Assembly (NCBI GenBank): GCA_964348065.1
Contig: CAYGBE010000214.1
Location: 2,572 to 66,571, forward strand
DNA: 64,000 nucleotides
Direction: 5' to 3'
Source: an uncultured archaeon
Lineage (GTDB): Archaea; Aenigmatarchaeota; Aenigmatarchaeia; Aenigmatarchaeales; Aenigmatarchaeaceae
Within the stretch, counting starts at the first letter, position 1. Each line of letters opens with the position of its first letter. This document shows positions 16,696 to 56,167 of this stretch, piece after piece. The notes below the pieces were generated by a model. That model did not search any database. It was not told the DNA's origin and saw only the letters and a program-made list of their open reading frames with translations. A program made the translations under genes and the position numbers.

Positions 16696-17331
16696 TTAAT
16701 TAATTTTATCTTCTTCCAAATGGTACTTGCCTTGTTTATAGATTTCTGGATTATGTTTTTTCCAATAGAGTTCGTTGTACCCTGTTGTTATTAGTTTTAA
16801 TTTTAAATTCTTGATTTTTTCCCTCATCCTATTTTTTATTTTTTCTATGTTTTTTTCATTTGAAACATGAGCCTCGATTTCAAGAAATTTTCCCATGTTT
16901 TTAACATCATCAAAACAAAAACCAAAATTCTCATCTTTGTATCTTTGTCTAATTTTGTCAATAACCATAGAATCTATAAAATTGTTTTTGGTTTTTAGTT
17001 CTTCTAAACTAGGGTTCATAATTCCAATCAAATCTAGAACTTTGCAGACTTTATTTATTTTTTCCAAAGAATTGGAAGTTAATGGTAAAGAAAAAGAATG
17101 TTCTTCACAATGTTCGTGTTTTTTTTCTAGATCTTCTAGATTAAATTTAAAATCCAAAGTTTTATTGTCTCTTATTCGTATGAAAAATCCTTTTTTGTAT
17201 AAATCTGCATCTTTTGTATCTAAATAAATATCAACTATTCTTTTTCTGCTAATGAAATCAAGATTTTTTAGAAATTCTTTAATTTGGGTTTCGTCTAAAA
17301 TTTGAAATTTTAATTCAATCTCAATACTCAT
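16696..17331 (-). CDS. CYTH-domain protein (triphosphate tunnel metalloenzyme / CyaB-like)
   Basis: 211 aa. The N-terminal IEIELKF carries the ExExK signature of CYTH domains, and the basic and acidic beta-strand pattern follows. Confidence 0.65.
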   Translation of the reverse strand: MSIEIELKFQILDETQIKEFLKNLDFISRKRIVDIYLDTKDADLYKKGFFIRIRDNKTLDFKFNLEDLEKKHEHCEEHSFSLPLTSNSLEKINKVCKVLDLIGIMNPSLEELKTKNNFIDSMVIDKIRQRYKDENFGFCFDDVKNMGKFLEIEAHVSNEKNIEKIKNRMREKIKNLKLKLITTGYNELYWKKHNPEIYKQGKYHLEEDKIN

Positions 17332-17691: not shown

Positions 17692-20600
17692 CCAGCAGAA
17701 GCAATTAAAGGGGTCTAAGCAAAAGGTATTGGGAAGTGCAAGCTGAACACATCGCCGAAGCTTTGTGCGTACACTTCACTCCCATTAAGCGGATCGTCTA
17801 TCCGCACCAGTTACCTATTTTTCCCGGCAGTTTCCAGCTTAGATGCTTTCAGCTGTTAAGTGCTATGACGTGGCTGCCCGGCTTTACCAAAAGATAACCG
17901 GTCAACTAGAGGTCACGGATGAGCGTTCCTTTCGTACTCACCCATCCTTCGAGTCAGGTAACAACACCCTCAGTAGATATAAACCGTACTGTCTTTGTCG
18001 TCTGATGTAGGAATTTAAATTTGGTTCATAAGCTACTCCATCAGCGAATGTTTCGCATTGGGACGGTTCATTCATTACCAAATAACATACGGTAACATGA
18101 TTTCATAGCTAGCCATAGCTAAAGCTAATCATGCTATCTTTTCAGGGAAAAGAATTAGTTCCCGCACCAGATCACGACGTACTGAACCCAGCTAATGTCC
18201 CCTTTTAACCAGTGAACACCTGTACCCTTGGCCGCTACTGCACGGCCAGGAGAGGGGAAGCCGACAGCGATGAAGCAATGCGCGGGGCCAATAGGAGCTC
18301 TCGCCCGCCACGACTCCATTATCCCCGGGGTAGCTTTTCTGAAGTAACCGAGGTCCATCAATAACAGCCCGGCGTATCGTTAGCCCACGCTTTCACGATT
18401 GAATTCCTTACTGTGCAGAATTCAATAAACAATCCTTTTACGCTTACACTCTACTCTCCATTTCTGACGGAGATGAGGATTACTTTGGGCACTCTTGATC
18501 TCCTGTCAAGAGTGTACCGCCCCAGCCGAGCGGTCCACCAATCGGTGTCCCCTCGAAGTCGAAGGTTAGTCATACAATTGTAAAAGGGCAGTGTTACATT
18601 GTTGTCTATCTAAAGCCCTAAAGCTTTAGCATGACGACTCCTACCTACACTATGCAATCACAACCATATAACAACGACAGGCTACCGCAGAGCTCCACGG
18701 GGTCTACTCTTCCCCCTGAGGGTCTGTGGCCTATTCACCACAAAAGCAGGTTCGCCGGACTCCAGTCTGGGACAGCGAAGGAGTCGTTAAGCCCTTCATG
18801 CAGGTCGACATTTAATCGACAAGGGATTACGCTACCTTAAGACAGTCAGAGTTACCGCCGCCGTTAACGAGGGCTTGGATCGGTTGAAACCGACTTTCAC
18901 ACACTCGCACTGGGCAGGCCTCAGCGACTATACAAAGCATTTCTGCTTAGCAGTCACCTATGTTTTTGTTAAACAGTCGCCCCTTCCTGGTCACTGCGTC
19001 CTATGCACTTCTGCATAGGCCATCCTTATACCAAAGATACGGATCTAATTTGCCGACTTCCCTAGACTGGGATAATCCGACACGCCATTGCCTTCTCAGC
19101 AAGGATACCAGTATAGGTTCTCAGTACAATCACAAACAATCCTTTCTAATTATATTTTCAAGGACTCTAGGAATTTGCCTAACTCCGCTATACAGCAGAG
19201 CTATTTGCAGCTTCAACTGATTCTCTCCTTGACGGAACTCCTCAGTTTTAACTACTTAACTTACGTAGGCATATCTCTAAAGTGTATACAATTAGACTTG
19301 TGTTGCCACACGTATGTCTATGGTACCTGAATATTAACAGGTTTCCCTTCCCATACAGCAGTTAAGAGTATGGTTAGGTTTGACTAACTCACGACCGAAA
19401 AACGTTGTCGTGAAAACCTTGCCCTTCAGGCGGAGAGGATTCTAACCTCTCTTTGTTGCTACTACCAGCAGGATTTTCATTTCTGTACGGTCCACACTTT
19501 TTTACAAAGGTGCTTCTGTCCATACAGAACGCCTTCCTACACTATTGCTTTCGCAATCTGAGGTCTCGGTTCTTAACTTACTCCAGTCCATCTTCACCGC
19601 ACCAGCCCTAGAGAGGTCCGTTGTTACACGTTGATTATGCGATGGCAACTTCTAAGCCTACGCTCCTCCTGTTTTGGAACTGACACAAGCTTCGTGAATT
19701 AGTTAAGATTAGGGACCTTAACCTCAGGCTAGGTTGTTCCCTTTTCGGATACCAGGCTTACCCTAGCACCCTCACTCCCATCTTCTACGATGTTAACAGA
19801 TTATTAGTTTGACAGGAAAACTGGGAATTTCTTCCCTTGATTCCCCAATCAGTGCTTTACCCTGTTAACTATCTCAGACGAGGCTGTGCTAAGACACATT
19901 TCGGAAGGAACCAGCTATCACCACTTTCGATTGGCTTTTCACCCCTAACCCCAATTCATCCGAGTGGTTTCTCCAACACCGGTTCAGACTTCCACGCAGC
20001 TTTCGCTACGCTTCATCTTGATTAGGGTTAGATCAAGCGGCTTCGGGTCTTGTTCTTGTGACTTCAGGCCCTTTCAGACCTAGTATCATGCTTTCGCTAC
20101 ATACTTTTGCTTTCGCTGTGGATATCTTGCTTAACAATTTATCCTTGCCACAAAAACAAACTCCCTGCCCCGTGTTCCTAAACGAACTCCATAATCCTGT
20201 AATCTTTTGTTCGTACACACTGCTTGCGCAGCTTTCCTTCACAAAAGAACCTTTCAGACCATGGATGACTATCACCAATAGGTTTCAAGATCTTTTCAAC
20301 TCCGGTGAAGAATACTTTTCAACTTTCAGTCACCTTACTTATTCGCTATCAGACTTTCGAGATATTTAGAGTTAGTCGTTGATGACAACCACCTTTCCAC
20401 TCCCCATCCAAGGAATGGTACTCTTTTCCTGAATCAACTTTCTAGTCTTCCTTTACGCGACTATCACGCTCTATGGCATGTCGTTCCAGACAACTTCAAG
20501 TCAACTAGCGAAGTTGTACCAGGCTCCACATCTTAACTGTATTTCTACAGCAATTCGGTCTGCTCTTTTCCGCTTTTACTCGCCGTTACTAACGGAATAA

Positions 20601-48051: not shown

Positions 48052-48716
48052 AACATACCCATTATTAATTCTTCCATAGCTTTCTCAACGTTTCCTGCTT
48101 TAACAACTCCTGATGCTAAAATAACTCCTTTTGCTCCAAGCTCAAGTGCTTTTTTAACATCTTCTCTTGTTTTGATTCCAGCTCCACAAAGAACATAAGT
48201 TCTTGGAGAAATTTTCTTAACAGAATTAACAGAATTTTTAATTATTTCTGGTTTGGCAGTTGAAACAGAAATGTCTCCTCCTATTAATTCTGGCGGTTCA
48301 ACTGCAATAAAATCTGGTTTGAATTCTGCTAATTTCTTTGCTTCTTCAATATCTTTTGCGCAAACAATTGATACTAAATCATACTCTTTACATAAATCAA
48401 CACATTTCTTAATGTCTTCATGAGGAATTCTTTTTTCAGAATGATTAATTAAAGAACCAATTGCTCCTAATTTTTTTACTTCTTTGGCAAGTAAAGCTCC
48501 TGTGTGAGCTCCAGGTTCATAAGGATCTATATGTTGAGAAACTGTTAGAGTTATTTCAGCAACTTCATTTAATAAAGGAGCGGGAGGAGCAATTAAAATA
48601 TTTACTTTGTGTTTATCTGTTAATTTTTTAGCAATTTGTGCAAACTTCATAGGGTTTTCTCCAAGAACTTGCTCATATCCTTTCAAATTAATTATTAAAA
48701 TAGGGGGCTTTAACAT
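48048..48716 (-). CDS. tpiA: triosephosphate isomerase, archaeal type
   Basis: 222 aa. N-terminus PILIINLKGY, then INHSEKR and VEPPELIGG. Confidence 0.85.
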   Translation of the reverse strand: MLKPPILIINLKGYEQVLGENPMKFAQIAKKLTDKHKVNILIAPPAPLLNEVAEITLTVSQHIDPYEPGAHTGALLAKEVKKLGAIGSLINHSEKRIPHEDIKKCVDLCKEYDLVSIVCAKDIEEAKKLAEFKPDFIAVEPPELIGGDISVSTAKPEIIKNSVNSVKKISPRTYVLCGAGIKTREDVKKALELGAKGVILASGVVKAGNVEKAMEELIMGML

Positions 48717-49810
48717 TATATATCCTTGAATCTATTTTTTAGTTTTTCTTTTACTGCGGGTAATGTTGTGTATTCCATTTCATCTGCTCCTAGTCTGTGT
48801 GGTTCGAATGGTCCTTGTCTTCTTAGAATATCTGCAATTTTTAATGCTTCCCATCTAGCTTTGTCAAATGATTTGTCTTTGAGCATATCTCTTGGTGTAC
48901 CTAACATTCCATTAGCTAATTGAAAACCTAATGCCATAACTCTAGGTGGTCCATCAAATCTTGATGGTGTGGCATCTTCAACAGCCACAGGCATGAATGG
49001 ACCATGATGACTTCCTCTCATCCAACCAGCAACAATCCATGGGTGTGCAAATGCTTCTAAAACTTCTCCTACTGCTGGTAAGCCATGTTGTGCTCTTACA
49101 AACATAACTGGATCATCTTTTCCAACATATTTTCCTGCAATTAAACTCAATCTACTTGTAGATGTGGAAACTGCATATAATTTATCCGAAGTTCTGCAAA
49201 CATGTTTTATAACATATCTTCCAGGTTGTCCGATCAATGCTAATAAATCATAAATCTCTTCAGGACATTTTAATTCAACTTTCTTATTTTTTATAACATC
49301 ATGAACTTCAAAAGTAAATCCTCCGTGCATATTGGAATCAATAACTAGACCTGCTGTTGAGAATGGATCTGCAAACATTTTGTATAAAGGAATGTTCCAT
49401 GCTCCTGGTTCTGTTTTGTCTGCCATAAAAATAATAACTGGTTCTGATTTTCTTTCTTCGAATTCCAACTCCGCAACACCTGGTCCCATTCCTTTTAGAT
49501 TTCCTGAGAAAGTGTCTTTTAACAAATCTTGACCAGCTCCATAAAGTTTTAGTTCTTTTGCTTTTTCTGTGCATTTTTTGAAAACATTCCAAGCCATAGC
49601 ATGTACATCTTTATTATCAACACCATGCTGATGAGTCATTATTAGTTGTAAATCATCTCCGCAAGCTGTCACATAAAAATCAATAATAAAACCTTTGTTT
49701 TTCTCATCTTGAAGAATGTTTCTTGCCATTTCAAGAATTTCTGGATGACTTGAAGAATGTCCAACATATCCTCCTATATCAGCTTTAATAACGCTTAGCG
49801 TAATTTTCAT
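48716..49810 (-). CDS. fbp: fructose-1,6-bisphosphate aldolase/phosphatase (class V FBPase)
   Basis: 364 aa. MKITLSVIKADIGGYVGHSSSHPE and the C-terminal GSHHGPFMPV blocks are characteristic. Confidence 0.9.
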   Translation of the reverse strand: MKITLSVIKADIGGYVGHSSSHPEILEMARNILQDEKNKGFIIDFYVTACGDDLQLIMTHQHGVDNKDVHAMAWNVFKKCTEKAKELKLYGAGQDLLKDTFSGNLKGMGPGVAELEFEERKSEPVIIFMADKTEPGAWNIPLYKMFADPFSTAGLVIDSNMHGGFTFEVHDVIKNKKVELKCPEEIYDLLALIGQPGRYVIKHVCRTSDKLYAVSTSTSRLSLIAGKYVGKDDPVMFVRAQHGLPAVGEVLEAFAHPWIVAGWMRGSHHGPFMPVAVEDATPSRFDGPPRVMALGFQLANGMLGTPRDMLKDKSFDKARWEALKIADILRRQGPFEPHRLGADEMEYTTLPAVKEKLKNRFKDI

Positions 49811-49933
49811 ACATTACAAATTGTAAAGGTTTAATATAAAGATTTCTTAAGGAGGTGCGGAGCCTGCTACAGACTCGAGATTAAGAGCAGTAACATTAAA
49901 ATGATTGTAAAGATTATAAAAATAGAATTTAAA

Positions 49934-51040
49934 TTATGGTAAAATTATTTCTCCTGTTTTGTTTAACCTATTACTATATGGCATCCCAGGAGTTCTGACT
50001 GGTGTAAGCGTGAGAGACATGTTAATATAAGGTTGTAGTGCAGATCCCTGGGGTATCTCAAAAACAACATGACCATTAGAGCCTGGTTGGATAAAAGGCG
50101 CAGAACAGTTCGTGACTGTTGCATGAATATATTGCCCTTTAAGCATTTGCACCAAAGCATCGCTCCAGTCGACTGGTTGAAAGAGAGGTGTTGGAACAGC
50201 ACGTGTGAGCTCTCCAACATATTTGTTTCCGATGTGTATTTTTTCAATGCTCTTTGCTAGAGTAAAATATTTTATATGTCCTCCAAATGTTGGAACGGAT
50301 CTATCACACAAATTTATCTCTAAAAAATTATTCTTGGAATATAAAATTCCATTCTTATCTTCCGAATCGTTGAAATATTTCACCACTGGATCTATTGTGA
50401 GACCTAGTCTTGCTTCTTCTATTTTCATAATTCTATGGAGTTTTTTTTCGGTAATTCCTGGAGCCGTCACGAGAAGCATGTCTGGCTTTATTTGATCATG
50501 CTCATCAAAGTATCCAAAATCATCTCTGCTTAAGCGATTAAATTCTTCAGCTGTTAAAGGTATAGTGTCAGGTTCTTTAAAAACAAGCTGTGTTATGCTT
50601 TCTCCTTTTTTTACAACATTTGAAATGAAAGGAACTATGACTTCTGTAGGTGTTTTATCTTCAATCGATTCAGCTAATTGAAATATACCTCTTCTTGCTG
50701 CTGAACTTCTTTTCACTAGTCTAGACTCGAAAGGTTCAGACTGAATCTTTTCATGGTGTTTTACCATATACCACCGATATTTTCTTAGCAAGTATCCGTC
50801 ATCCAAAGCATCTGGACGCTTGGTTTTCCAACAAACAAGATCAGCAAGATCCTTGAGTGTATAACATCCAAGATTATACAAGTCTTCGAATACTTCTTTA
50901 GGATATTTCATCTCTAGCTCTAAGATTTCATCTACAGTTAAATCTACAGATATTGGTCCTATATTTGTAGGTCTCGGCTCTATGATAATTCTGCCTGAAT
51001 CTATTTCTTCTTCTATGTCGACATTTGAAAGGATAGCCAT
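49934..51040 (-). CDS. long-form dCTP deaminase-like protein (two dUTPase-fold halves)
   Basis: 368 aa. The N-terminal ILSNVDIEEEIDSGRIIIEPRPTNIGPISVDLTV and KRSSAARRGI...ITQLVF match dCTP deaminase. The second half again has a PFIQPGSNGHVVFEI-type block. The size is about double a normal Dcd. Confidence 0.55.
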   Translation of the reverse strand: MAILSNVDIEEEIDSGRIIIEPRPTNIGPISVDLTVDEILELEMKYPKEVFEDLYNLGCYTLKDLADLVCWKTKRPDALDDGYLLRKYRWYMVKHHEKIQSEPFESRLVKRSSAARRGIFQLAESIEDKTPTEVIVPFISNVVKKGESITQLVFKEPDTIPLTAEEFNRLSRDDFGYFDEHDQIKPDMLLVTAPGITEKKLHRIMKIEEARLGLTIDPVVKYFNDSEDKNGILYSKNNFLEINLCDRSVPTFGGHIKYFTLAKSIEKIHIGNKYVGELTRAVPTPLFQPVDWSDALVQMLKGQYIHATVTNCSAPFIQPGSNGHVVFEIPQGSALQPYINMSLTLTPVRTPGMPYSNRLNKTGEIILP

Positions 51041-51088
51041 GAAATCACAAAATTAAAATATAACAGATAAGATTTAAATTCTTATTAG

Positions 51089-51122
51089 TGCGGAGGGCAG
51101 GATTTGAACCTGCGAATCCATT
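51089..51122 (-). other. orphan tRNA 3' half (perfect T-arm plus 3' acceptor strand and discriminator)
   Basis: The minus strand reads AATGG-ATTC-GCAGG-TTCAAAT-CCTGC-CCTCCGC-A. The 5-bp T-stem is perfect and the T-loop is canonical. No GCGGAGG 5' acceptor strand, D-arm or anticodon arm lies upstream. Confidence 0.45.
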
Positions 51123-51173
51123 ACTAGAGCAATACAAATATATTAAAGTATAGAGTATTCTTATTAGAGAAAA

Positions 51174-52643
51174 ATGTTTGATTCAATAAGATTTGTTAAG
51201 GAAAATAAAACTGTTTACAAAATTCTAATTAATGGAAAATGGAAAGAATCTTCTAATAAAAAAACCTTTGAAATTAAAAATCCTGCTGACGGTTCTTTAA
51301 TAGCAGAGGTTCAGAAAGCTAGTAAAAAAGATGCTGAAAAGGCCGTTAAAGCTGCTTTTAAAGCAAAATCAAAAATAGCAAACATGAATGCCTCTGAAAG
51401 GGGAGATATTTTAGATAAAATGGGAAATTTATTAGAACAACACAAAGAAGAATTCATAGACATAATTATGAAAGAATCTGGAAAAACAAGAAAACTAGCT
51501 GAAGGAGAACTTCATGCTTCAATAGGAAGACTACATTACGCGTCTGATGAGGCAAAGGAAATAAGAGGAGAACTAATAAAAGGTGATATTGCGGGTAAAA
51601 AAGATTCAATGGGAATGGTTATTAGACAGCCTTTAGGTGTTTTATTAGCAATAACACCATTTAATTATCCTTTGTTTACAGGGATTGCAAAAATATCTCC
51701 TGGAATAGCAGCTGGAAATTCAATTGTAGTTAAACCTGCAAGTGCTGATCCTATATGTTTGTTAATGTTTGGAAAAATTATGCAAGAAGCTGGTTTACCA
51801 AATGGTGTAGTAAATATAGTCACAGGATCAAGCTCAGAAATAGGGGATTACTTGTGTTCTCACCCTAAGATTGATATGATTTCATTCACAGGAAGTAGTG
51901 CAGTTGGAAAACACATAGCATCTATTGCTGGAATGAAAAAACTACATTTAGAATTAGGAGGAAAAGCACCAGCAATTGTTTTAGAAGATTGTAATTTTGA
52001 TATAGCTGTTAAAGAAGTTGCAATTGGTTCTTTAAAGTTCTCAGGCCAAAGATGTGATTCAATAAGCAGGGTTTTAGTTGTAGAATCAATAGCTGATAAA
52101 TTTGTTAATGCCATGTTAGAAGAAGTTAAAAAATGGAAACTTGGAAATCCCGGAGACCCAGAAACTGTTGTTGGACCTTTGATAAATGAAGTTGCTGCCA
52201 AAAAAGTTGAAGAATTAGTTAATGATGCTGTTAAAAAAGGTGCAAAACTTTTACATGGTGGGAAAAAATATGATCATGGATATTTTGAACCAACAGTTCT
52301 AGATTTTATTAACAGAGATATGAGAATTGCTTGGGAAGAAACATTTGGACCTGTTGTTACAATTATAAGGGTTAAAGATTATGAAGAGGCAATCGAACTA
52401 GCAAATGAATCTGAATATGGTTTGGATGCTTGTATATTTACACAAGACATTGATAAAGCACTTGATGCAGGTCAAAGAATTGAAGCTGGTTCTGTTCATA
52501 TAAATGCTCATCCAACTCATGGTTTAGGTGTATTTCCATTTGGTGGGGACGAAAGCTCTGGAGTAGGTAGAGAGGGAATTAAATACAGCATAGAAGATAT
52601 GTCAAAGGTTCATGTTATGGTTTTACATTCTCATAAAGAATGA
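51174..52643 (+). CDS. aldehyde dehydrogenase, GAPN-like (non-phosphorylating glyceraldehyde-3-phosphate dehydrogenase candidate)
   Basis: 489 aa. ALDH blocks LELGGKAP, the catalytic FSGQRCDS and EETFGPV. Substrate is inferred only from the glycolytic neighbourhood. Confidence 0.65.
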   Translation: MFDSIRFVKENKTVYKILINGKWKESSNKKTFEIKNPADGSLIAEVQKASKKDAEKAVKAAFKAKSKIANMNASERGDILDKMGNLLEQHKEEFIDIIMKESGKTRKLAEGELHASIGRLHYASDEAKEIRGELIKGDIAGKKDSMGMVIRQPLGVLLAITPFNYPLFTGIAKISPGIAAGNSIVVKPASADPICLLMFGKIMQEAGLPNGVVNIVTGSSSEIGDYLCSHPKIDMISFTGSSAVGKHIASIAGMKKLHLELGGKAPAIVLEDCNFDIAVKEVAIGSLKFSGQRCDSISRVLVVESIADKFVNAMLEEVKKWKLGNPGDPETVVGPLINEVAAKKVEELVNDAVKKGAKLLHGGKKYDHGYFEPTVLDFINRDMRIAWEETFGPVVTIIRVKDYEEAIELANESEYGLDACIFTQDIDKALDAGQRIEAGSVHINAHPTHGLGVFPFGGDESSGVGREGIKYSIEDMSKVHVMVLHSHKE

Positions 52644-56011: not shown

Positions 56012-56063
56012 AAAAATATTTTATATAACTTTTATTAATAGTTTTAAAAATCAACTATTATTT

Positions 56064-56137
56064 GCCCCTATAGTTCAATTTGGATAGAACAACTCCCTGC
56101 GGAGGAGTTAATCCGCGTTCAAATCGCGGTGGGGGCA
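56064..56137 (+). tRNA. tRNA-Arg (anticodon GCG)
   Basis: Cloverleaf folded by hand:
- acceptor: GCCCCTA/TGGGGGC
- D-arm: GTTC-AATTTGGATA-GAAC
- anticodon arm: ACTCC-CTGCGGA-GGAGT
- variable loop: 4 nt
- T-arm: CCGCG-TTCAAAT-CGCGG
- discriminator: A
Total length is 74 nt, with no encoded CCA and no intron. Confidence 0.9.
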
Positions 56138-56167
56138 TTTATTTTAATAGAAAAGTAATATTTTGAT

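Follow-up and report, generated by a model that had tools for sequence, protein, structure and literature searches.

An orphan tRNA-Leu 3' end as a probable att-site relic at the edge of a variable gene islet in an Aenigmarchaeota genome

Cis-mobilisable elements (CIMEs), a term from the literature on ICESt1 and ICESt3 of Streptococcus, are att-flanked, integrase-less derivatives of integrative elements. Solitary tRNA pieces also occur as parts of split tRNA genes, which are found in Nanoarchaeum equitans and Caldivirga maquilingensis. Partial tRNA genes left by the integration of elements are pervasive in archaea (PMC9897764). The integrase of pTN3 targets tRNA-Leu, and it also rearranges chromosomes between att-like sites (PMC5495485). 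In Prochlorococcus, genomic islands contain scattered partial tRNAs that stem from successive integrations (10.1101/2020.12.28.424599).

Here we describe a stand-alone tRNA-Leu 3' end in an archaeon of the Aenigmarchaeota (DPANN), a host with a reduced genome from a group with genomes of ~0.8 Mb. The piece lies in the window, the whole stretch of 64,000 nucleotides that was analysed, which is part of contig C214. It is a 3' fragment of a tRNA-Leu gene, hereafter fragA, on the minus strand at 51089..51118, and it comprises the end of the variable region (GGATTC), the T-arm (GCAGG-TTCAAAT-CCTGC), the 3' acceptor strand (CCTCCGC) and the discriminator base A. The earlier note on this DNA had read the minus strand at 51122-51089 as AATGG-ATTC-GCAGG-TTCAAAT-CCTGC-CCTCCGC-A; bases and coordinates are exact, and its description of a flawless T-arm, 3' acceptor strand and discriminator is borne out at 51118-51089. 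It was also right that the piece is not part of a complete tRNA, as ARAGORN and the Rfam tRNA model report none there. The sole tRNA call in the window by these programs (ARAGORN run with introns) is a tRNA-Arg(GCG) at 56063-56138, and the orphan copies of relatives yielded no tRNA call by ARAGORN or by the Rfam tRNA model (Rfam E<=1). FragA marks one edge of a variable gene islet, on the side of an aldehyde dehydrogenase (ALDH) gene. It is very probably a dead 3' tRNA-Leu end, an att-site relic that serves or served as a site of DNA recombination.

The locus adds to the well-documented att relics a new and small example that lacks an integrase and lies in a DPANN genome. As in the archaeal relics PYG1 of Pyrococcus yayanosii and the TKV/pTN3-type elements of Thermococcales, direct repeats of a tRNA 3' portion bracket acquired DNA (PMC9897764, PMC5495485). 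Further similarities with the archaeal relics are that the repeat is identical to a full tRNA gene, that tRNA-Leu is a documented target, and that the fragments are non-functional as tRNA (PMC9897764; PMC5495485). Compared to PYG1 and the TKV/pTN3-type elements, however, the bracketed DNA is a single gene of ~1.2 kb without an integrase, a complete tRNA gene is absent from both ends, the host has a reduced DPANN genome, and the core, which starts at the T-loop or T-stem and runs to the 3' end, measures ~21-25 nt instead of 41-44 bp. With the tycheposon islands of Prochlorococcus (10.1101/2020.12.28.424599), the locus shares a fixed hotspot that differs between close relatives, partial tRNAs that mark old integrations, and accessory cargo. 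In contrast, those islands adjoin an intact tRNA gene and involve active tyrosine-recombinase elements that have been shown to excise.

Like a CIME, the islet is a segment between two att cores that lacks a recombination module of its own and is mobilisable in principle by an incoming related element, but no cognate autonomous element was identified for its core. By this comparison, the closest analogue of the islet is a CIME-like, att-flanked remnant. What the locus has in common with the split tRNA genes of Nanoarchaeum equitans and Caldivirga maquilingensis is an isolated tRNA 3' part whose T-arm and acceptor strand are perfect, in a DPANN archaeon.

The host genome set consists of 33 contigs (790 kb, ~31% GC) in a mixed bin, and the remainder of this bin (G000) amounts to about 1.25 Mb on 228 contigs of 37-70% GC. 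The G000 assembly is ~79% complete, with a listed contamination of 3.4%. Most of the 14 tyrosine-recombinase matches in the bin sit on the contigs of 37-70% GC.

The last 25 nt of fragA (GCAGGTTCAAATCCTGCCCTCCGCA) are identical, at 25/25 positions, to the ends of two complete genes of its own genome, tRNA-Leu(GAG) on C81 and tRNA-Leu(CAA) on C97. A full tRNA with the same 3' end elsewhere, which the earlier note had named as favouring an att remnant, is thus present twice. Judged by this identity, fragA is the 3' end of a tRNA-Leu gene, covering approximately positions 47-73. The two other tRNA-Leu genes of the host are tRNA-Leu(UAA) on contig C241 (~18660-18848, minus strand), which carries one intron in the D-loop and others around the anticodon loop, and tRNA-Leu(UAG) on contig C155 (~16983-17095, plus strand), with a D-loop intron. 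These D-loop introns are roughly 24-26 nt each and non-canonical, and ARAGORN misses both genes because of such introns; tRNA-Leu(UAG) surfaced during the searches for a 5' half by acceptor motif and BLAST. The complete GAG, UAG, UAA and CAA genes together cover all six Leu codons, and therefore no isoacceptor is missing. The Leu set is complete without fragA, one of the observations that the earlier note had listed as speaking against a split gene. A separate observation concerns contig C177 (c12061-12171), where a 'tRNA-Stop(tta)' reported by ARAGORN, with an intron of 37 nt, is probably a tRNA whose intron was parsed wrongly.

The 5' half starting with GCGGAGG, which a split gene would call for, was searched in two ways. 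In the 33 low-GC contigs, every site with GCGGAGG or GCGGGGG plus a D-arm is part of a complete tRNA-Leu gene. When five Leu 5' halves served as BLAST queries, only the four complete genes were matched in this ~79% complete assembly. Both searches thus returned complete tRNA-Leu genes only.

An alignment of the ALDH-upstream regions of seven genomes (A1), which sets the left limit of fragA, confines the tRNA-derived stretch to ~30 nt at 51089-51118. The earlier note had taken 51089-51156 as one unit of 68 nt. This is not a unit, since ~51119-51156 is a conserved upstream and promoter block of the ALDH gene that is also present in relatives without the tRNA piece. On the plus strand, this block (51119..51156 in alignment A1) reads CATTAC-N4-GCAATAC-AAATATATTAAAG... 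and is not tRNA-derived. The block ...CTTTAATATATTTGTAWTGNTNNNGTAATG is kept in 7/7 of the aligned regions, also in G004 and L031, where the fragment is absent, and in G017, whose site is empty. A TATA-like box, TATATTAAA, lies at 51139-51147 on the plus strand and ends 26 nt before the ALDH ATG, a spacing that would fit a leaderless or short-leader ALDH mRNA.

Several candidate features around fragA were tried and rejected. The sequence CTCTAGTAATGG does not qualify as the variable arm of the fragment, as it aligns with the ALDH upstream block in genomes without the fragment. The TATA-like TTTAATATA was dismissed as a promoter of the fragment, as it is conserved with ALDH and precedes the ALDH ATG by 26 nt on the opposite strand; read on the minus strand, its transcription start would fall approximately at the T-stem. 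An antisense ORF ending in the T-loop, similar to the integrase overlap of SSV type, was discarded as well, as the frames disagree among the copies. The plus strand also resembles a tRNA-Leu 5' flank followed by GCGGAGG, with a 10/11 match to the flank of the C81 gene. Reading this likeness as an intragenic inversion was left as an unsupported curiosity.

The islet is flanked by two conserved, divergently oriented genes, which were assigned by Pfam and synteny. The ALDH gene is at 51174..52643 on the plus strand (PF00171, E 1.3e-160), and a class V fructose-1,6-bisphosphatase (FBPase) gene is at 48716..49810 on the minus strand (PF01950, E 1.7e-183). Between them, a cargo gene at 49934..51040 on the minus strand encodes a protein of 368 aa with an N-terminal dCTP-deaminase-like domain (residues 3-155; PF22769, E 2.5e-13) and an uncharacterised C-terminal half of roughly 210 aa. 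The cargo gene is strain-specific, being present in 1/21 family genomes. A relative of 356 aa that is 26% identical lies ~3 kb from a tRNA-Leu(GAG) gene on G001:C13. In scans of the cargo proteins, PADLOC gave no match for the 368-aa protein, and PADLOC and PHROGs together returned the dCTP-deaminase match and nothing else. The protein may have an accessory role in the nucleotide pool or against viruses. No integrase was found in or beside the islet, as C214 has no PF00589 match and the islet ORF is DCD-like only.

On the far side of the cargo gene lies a degraded second copy of the tRNA-Leu end, fragB, at 49856..49867 on the minus strand. It reads GCAGG-CTCCGCA (GCAGGCTCCGCA) and carries a 13-nt internal deletion. 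FragB lies 10 nt before a conserved FBPase promoter block, and in G002 an intact 25-mer is located at the same distance from the same block.

The same spacer differs strongly among relatives. In G017 the spacer between ALDH and FBPase is empty and 115 bp long. In G002, of the same genus, fragA is followed by a 150-aa ORF, the intact second 25-mer and then FBPase. In G009, of another genus, the order is fragA (with acceptor CCTCCAC), a 100-aa ORF, a degraded second copy and then FBPase. In G001, where FBPase is not adjacent, the DNA next to ALDH contains a Leu(UAG)-type core, a nucleotidyltransferase-like gene plus a 279-aa ORF, and a second core. G004, of the same genus as the host, has a predicted secreted protein of 480 aa and no cores. 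A second direct copy beyond the cargo is hence found in three genomes, intact in G002 and degraded in G000 and G009. The fragA of G009 differs by one change (24/25), and this variant equals the GTGGAGG/CCTCCAC acceptor of its own tRNA-Leu(CAA). No 5' tRNA half accompanies fragA in G000, G002 or G009, three genomes from two genera. The content of the spacer differs between genomes and is bracketed by repeats of the tRNA-Leu end; the spacer is therefore a replacement hotspot.

Similar tRNA-Leu ends are widespread in the family. A search with the core pattern gave 83 matches in 16/21 family genomes (among them 5 in G000, 8 in G002 and 17 in G001), while the reversed control gave 0. Retrieval and classification of 78 distinct copies of the tRNA-Leu end yielded 46 complete genes and 32 orphans. 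All 46 complete tRNA-Leu genes have 5/5 pairs in the T-stem, whereas the T-stem is broken in 26/32 orphans and intact in 6/32. In most orphans, tRNA identity begins at G-TTCAAATCC, and the 5' strand of the T-stem is replaced by GCTAG, GCTGG, GTCAG and similar sequences. The broken T-stems of the orphans, against none broken in the complete genes, indicate that the orphans are DNA-level recombination scars. The orphan pattern is the one expected for att cores with a crossover in or near the T-loop, unlike that of structurally selected RNAs.

The arrangement on G004:C42 is of the textbook kind, with a complete tRNA-Leu(GAG), then ~550 bp with a 125-aa ORF, and then an orphan core. G019:C19 has an array of three cores, one end of which is a complete tRNA gene, as at G004:C42. 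In G001, ~12 orphan cores were confirmed among the 17 pattern matches, a number well above the four or five complete Leu genes that are expected. On contig C2 of G001, exosome, proteasome and MetRS genes lie between a core at 27.2 kb and another at 41.5 kb. This stretch was considered as a 14-kb element and rejected, since these are core housekeeping genes; a pair of cores therefore does not always bound an element.

The DNA around the cores is conserved as well. In many copies from several genera, the core is followed on its 3' side by TTCTTCA...TGAGGGCRGC and then by a promoter-like box, TTTAAAGATTAGT. This after-core end can be written as CA(G/T)CT(C/G)ATGTTCTTCAC...TGAGGGC(A/G)GC, in which the GAGGGCAG part is an imperfect inverted repeat of the core CTGCCCTC. 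It was recorded in L002 (1440-1500), L014, L020, L010, L048, L059, L075, L089, L090 and L092. On the 5' side, many copies from several genera have GGGAAAGATGGTTAAGGAAGAAAACCGTAGGTTGTC... or ...GAAAAGATGCGCTAG, and this before-core end was recorded in L002 (925-990), L009, L049, L090 and L098. The conserved sequences flanking the cores point to a related set of elements.

Some further observations concern these ends and the recombinases of the lineage. The before-core GGGAAAGATGGTTAAGGAAGAAAACCGTAGGTTGTC contains a hairpin that co-varies between G002 and G019. On G009:C12 (L042) and G002:C30 (L036), the ORF upstream of the element right end ...GAAAAGATGCGCTAG takes its final codons and its stop (…EKMR*) from that end; in G009:C12 this ORF looks like a seryl-tRNA synthetase gene. 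Integration may have replaced the native 3' end of the gene upstream of GAAAAGATGCGCTAG. Tyrosine recombinase genes are present in the lineage, namely on the low-GC contig C183 beside tRNA-Asn, in G001 (one of them on C2 at 20.0-21.2 kb) and in G019. tRNA-Asn(GUU) occurs twice in G000, on C183 (2.7 kb) and on C92, with near-identical upstream DNA. On C183, the tRNA-Asn(GUU) is followed by the tyrosine recombinase gene, with an open frame of 407 aa. C183 probably carries an element that has integrated at a tRNA-Asn gene in the genome of this archaeon.

The earlier note had further proposed a small inserted element with a target-site duplication, based on the 11-bp direct repeat ATTCTTATTAG at 51078-51088, where it abuts the discriminator, and at 51157-51167. 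Both copies are confirmed. A miniature element of 68 nt (51089-51156) that duplicated its 11-bp target on insertion would account for the exact 11-mer on either side, of which one copy directly adjoins the end of the tRNA. This arrangement is nominally unusual, as a repeat of at least 11 nt arises in 0.76% of shuffles of the 133-nt spacer. The argument that chance is an unlikely source stands to that extent but is not compelling: the AT-rich window has 15 exact direct repeats of at least 11 nt within 100 nt, against 6.0 in dinucleotide shuffles of the whole window and 8.5 in shuffles of 500-nt blocks. Moreover, TTCTTA/TAAGAA-type motifs are common in promoter-proximal DNA here, including the stretch between the TATA box and +1 of tRNA genes of G000, and in G014 a tRNA-Leu gene is followed by a near-identical TAATAAGAATTTAA. 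The tRNA piece is missing from G004, G017 and L031, yet these relatives keep 51119-51156, the ALDH promoter. G002 and G009 have the piece without a second repeat copy, and the search that the earlier note suggested for further copies of the 68-nt stretch found none in the genome. About half of this stretch is conserved ALDH promoter; it is therefore not an insertion and the repeat is not a target-site duplication, and we regard an insertion of this kind as refuted by the relatives and practically devoid of probability. Of the two repeat copies, copy 2 (51157..51167), between the ALDH TATA box and start codon, is kept with minor differences in G001, G002, G009 and the fragment-free G004, and only loosely recognisable in G017 and L031; according to this alignment, it is ancestral ALDH promoter-proximal DNA. 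Copy 1 (51078..51088) is specific to G000, and overlaps a BRE-like, A-rich stretch directly before the ATTTAAAT box of the cargo gene. At its position, G002 has the left end of an element and G009 a different element end, without ATTCTTATTAG. We propose that copy 1 belongs to the left end or the promoter of the cargo segment. The repeat can be read as a recurring promoter-type, AT-rich sequence, or at most as microhomology.

A second alternative, also raised in the earlier note, is that fragA is a genuine 3' half of a split tRNA-Leu gene of the Nanoarchaeum type, whose separate transcript would be linked in trans to that of a 5' half located elsewhere. The flawless T-arm, acceptor strand and discriminator would agree with this, as would the retention of the piece beside ALDH in two genera with one change that matches the acceptor variant of tRNA-Leu(CAA) in G009, a DPANN host with several non-canonical tRNA introns, and an assembly that is just about 79% complete. 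Yet the host has complete genes for GAG, CAA, UAA and UAG, two of which share the 3' end of fragA, and no orphan 5' half was found by acceptor motif plus D-arm or by BLAST with five Leu 5' halves. Unlike in the described split genes, the piece has no complementary leader and no promoter of its own: directly upstream lies the ALDH promoter block, conserved also where the piece is absent, and there is therefore neither a leader nor a dedicated promoter at a workable distance. The piece is also absent from G004 of the same genus, and most of its sister copies in the family (26/32 orphans) have a broken T-stem. Furthermore, it would begin at ~position 47, and among the Nanoarchaeum and Caldivirga cases no tRNA is known to be split at about this position. 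A split gene is accordingly very improbable. Somewhat less improbable, though still a poor candidate, is the simple decay of a resident tRNA-Leu copy between ALDH and FBPase, unrelated to mobile DNA, in which the 5' part was deleted and all else is coincidence. Such a history would be in line with the TGGATTC upstream of the T-stem, which matches the variable-arm end of tRNA-Leu(GAG) genes, and with an islet that lacks an integrase. However, it leaves unexplained that in three genomes another copy in direct orientation lies beyond the cargo, the different cargo per genome and the empty site, and the family-wide orphan cores with conserved element ends.

The interpretation of fragA as an att-site relic, the other possibility named in the earlier note, is supported by the identical 3' ends of full tRNA-Leu genes, by the degraded second copy that bounds the cargo, and by the empty site or other cargo in relatives. 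According to this interpretation, small integrative elements of this Aenigmarchaeota family would use the stretch from the T-loop to the 3' end of tRNA-Leu as their att core (the attP copy). Site-specific recombination would leave one copy of the core at each end of the inserted DNA, presumably through a tyrosine recombinase acting in trans with a crossover in or near the T-loop. The ALDH-FBPase spacer would serve as a hotspot of integration and replacement, where repeated integration, replacement and decay could have produced the present state, a single cargo gene between an intact core and a damaged one. A core at a locus without a complete tRNA might have arisen by deletion of the 5' two-thirds of a resident tRNA-Leu, or from an element with a core at both ends. 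The TGGATTC before the T-stem of fragA matches real tRNA-Leu(GAG) genes at the end of the variable arm. As it encodes no integrase, we infer that the islet has become a fossil or can be mobilised only passively.

Some of our results do not favour an att-site relic. No integrase gene was found within the islet or beside it. Unlike a textbook attL, the upstream copy does not belong to a complete tRNA gene, and this applies to three genomes of two genera. In addition, the ALDH-side core of G001 is of the Leu(UAG) type, not the GAG/CAA type, and some orphan cores adjoin housekeeping genes; the history at non-tRNA loci is therefore only partly explained. Between genera, fragA kept 24/25 positions against about 75% in its flanks. 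This conservation above the flanks could reflect selection, but re-copying during recombination also explains it.

More speculatively, the tRNA-Leu ends might be parts of non-autonomous single-gene cassettes that form an undescribed family in Aenigmarchaeota, an idea that we consider doubtful but worth stating. Each cassette would consist of a right end, the core, a left end, its own promoter and the cargo. The left end would be approximately TTCTTCA...TGAGGGCRGC, the imperfect inverted repeat of the core, and the right end approximately GGGAAAGATGGTTAAGGAAGAAAACCGTAGGTTGTC. A recombinase acting in trans would shuffle the cassettes between tRNA-Leu genes and secondary chromosomal sites. If this is true, the cassettes would be the main vehicle of gene exchange in these reduced genomes, and fragA would be one live or recently live docking site.

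For fragA as an att-site relic, the implications are more modest. A tempting candidate for a split tRNA in a DPANN archaeon would be an ordinary integration scar, not to be counted as a tRNA gene or as a pseudogene of functional interest. Even Aenigmarchaeota genomes of ~0.8 Mb would then retain small hotspots that swap single accessory genes at cores derived from tRNA-Leu. The orphan cores found across the family, together with the conserved motifs around them, could serve as markers for tracing recent gene flow in these uncultivated symbionts.
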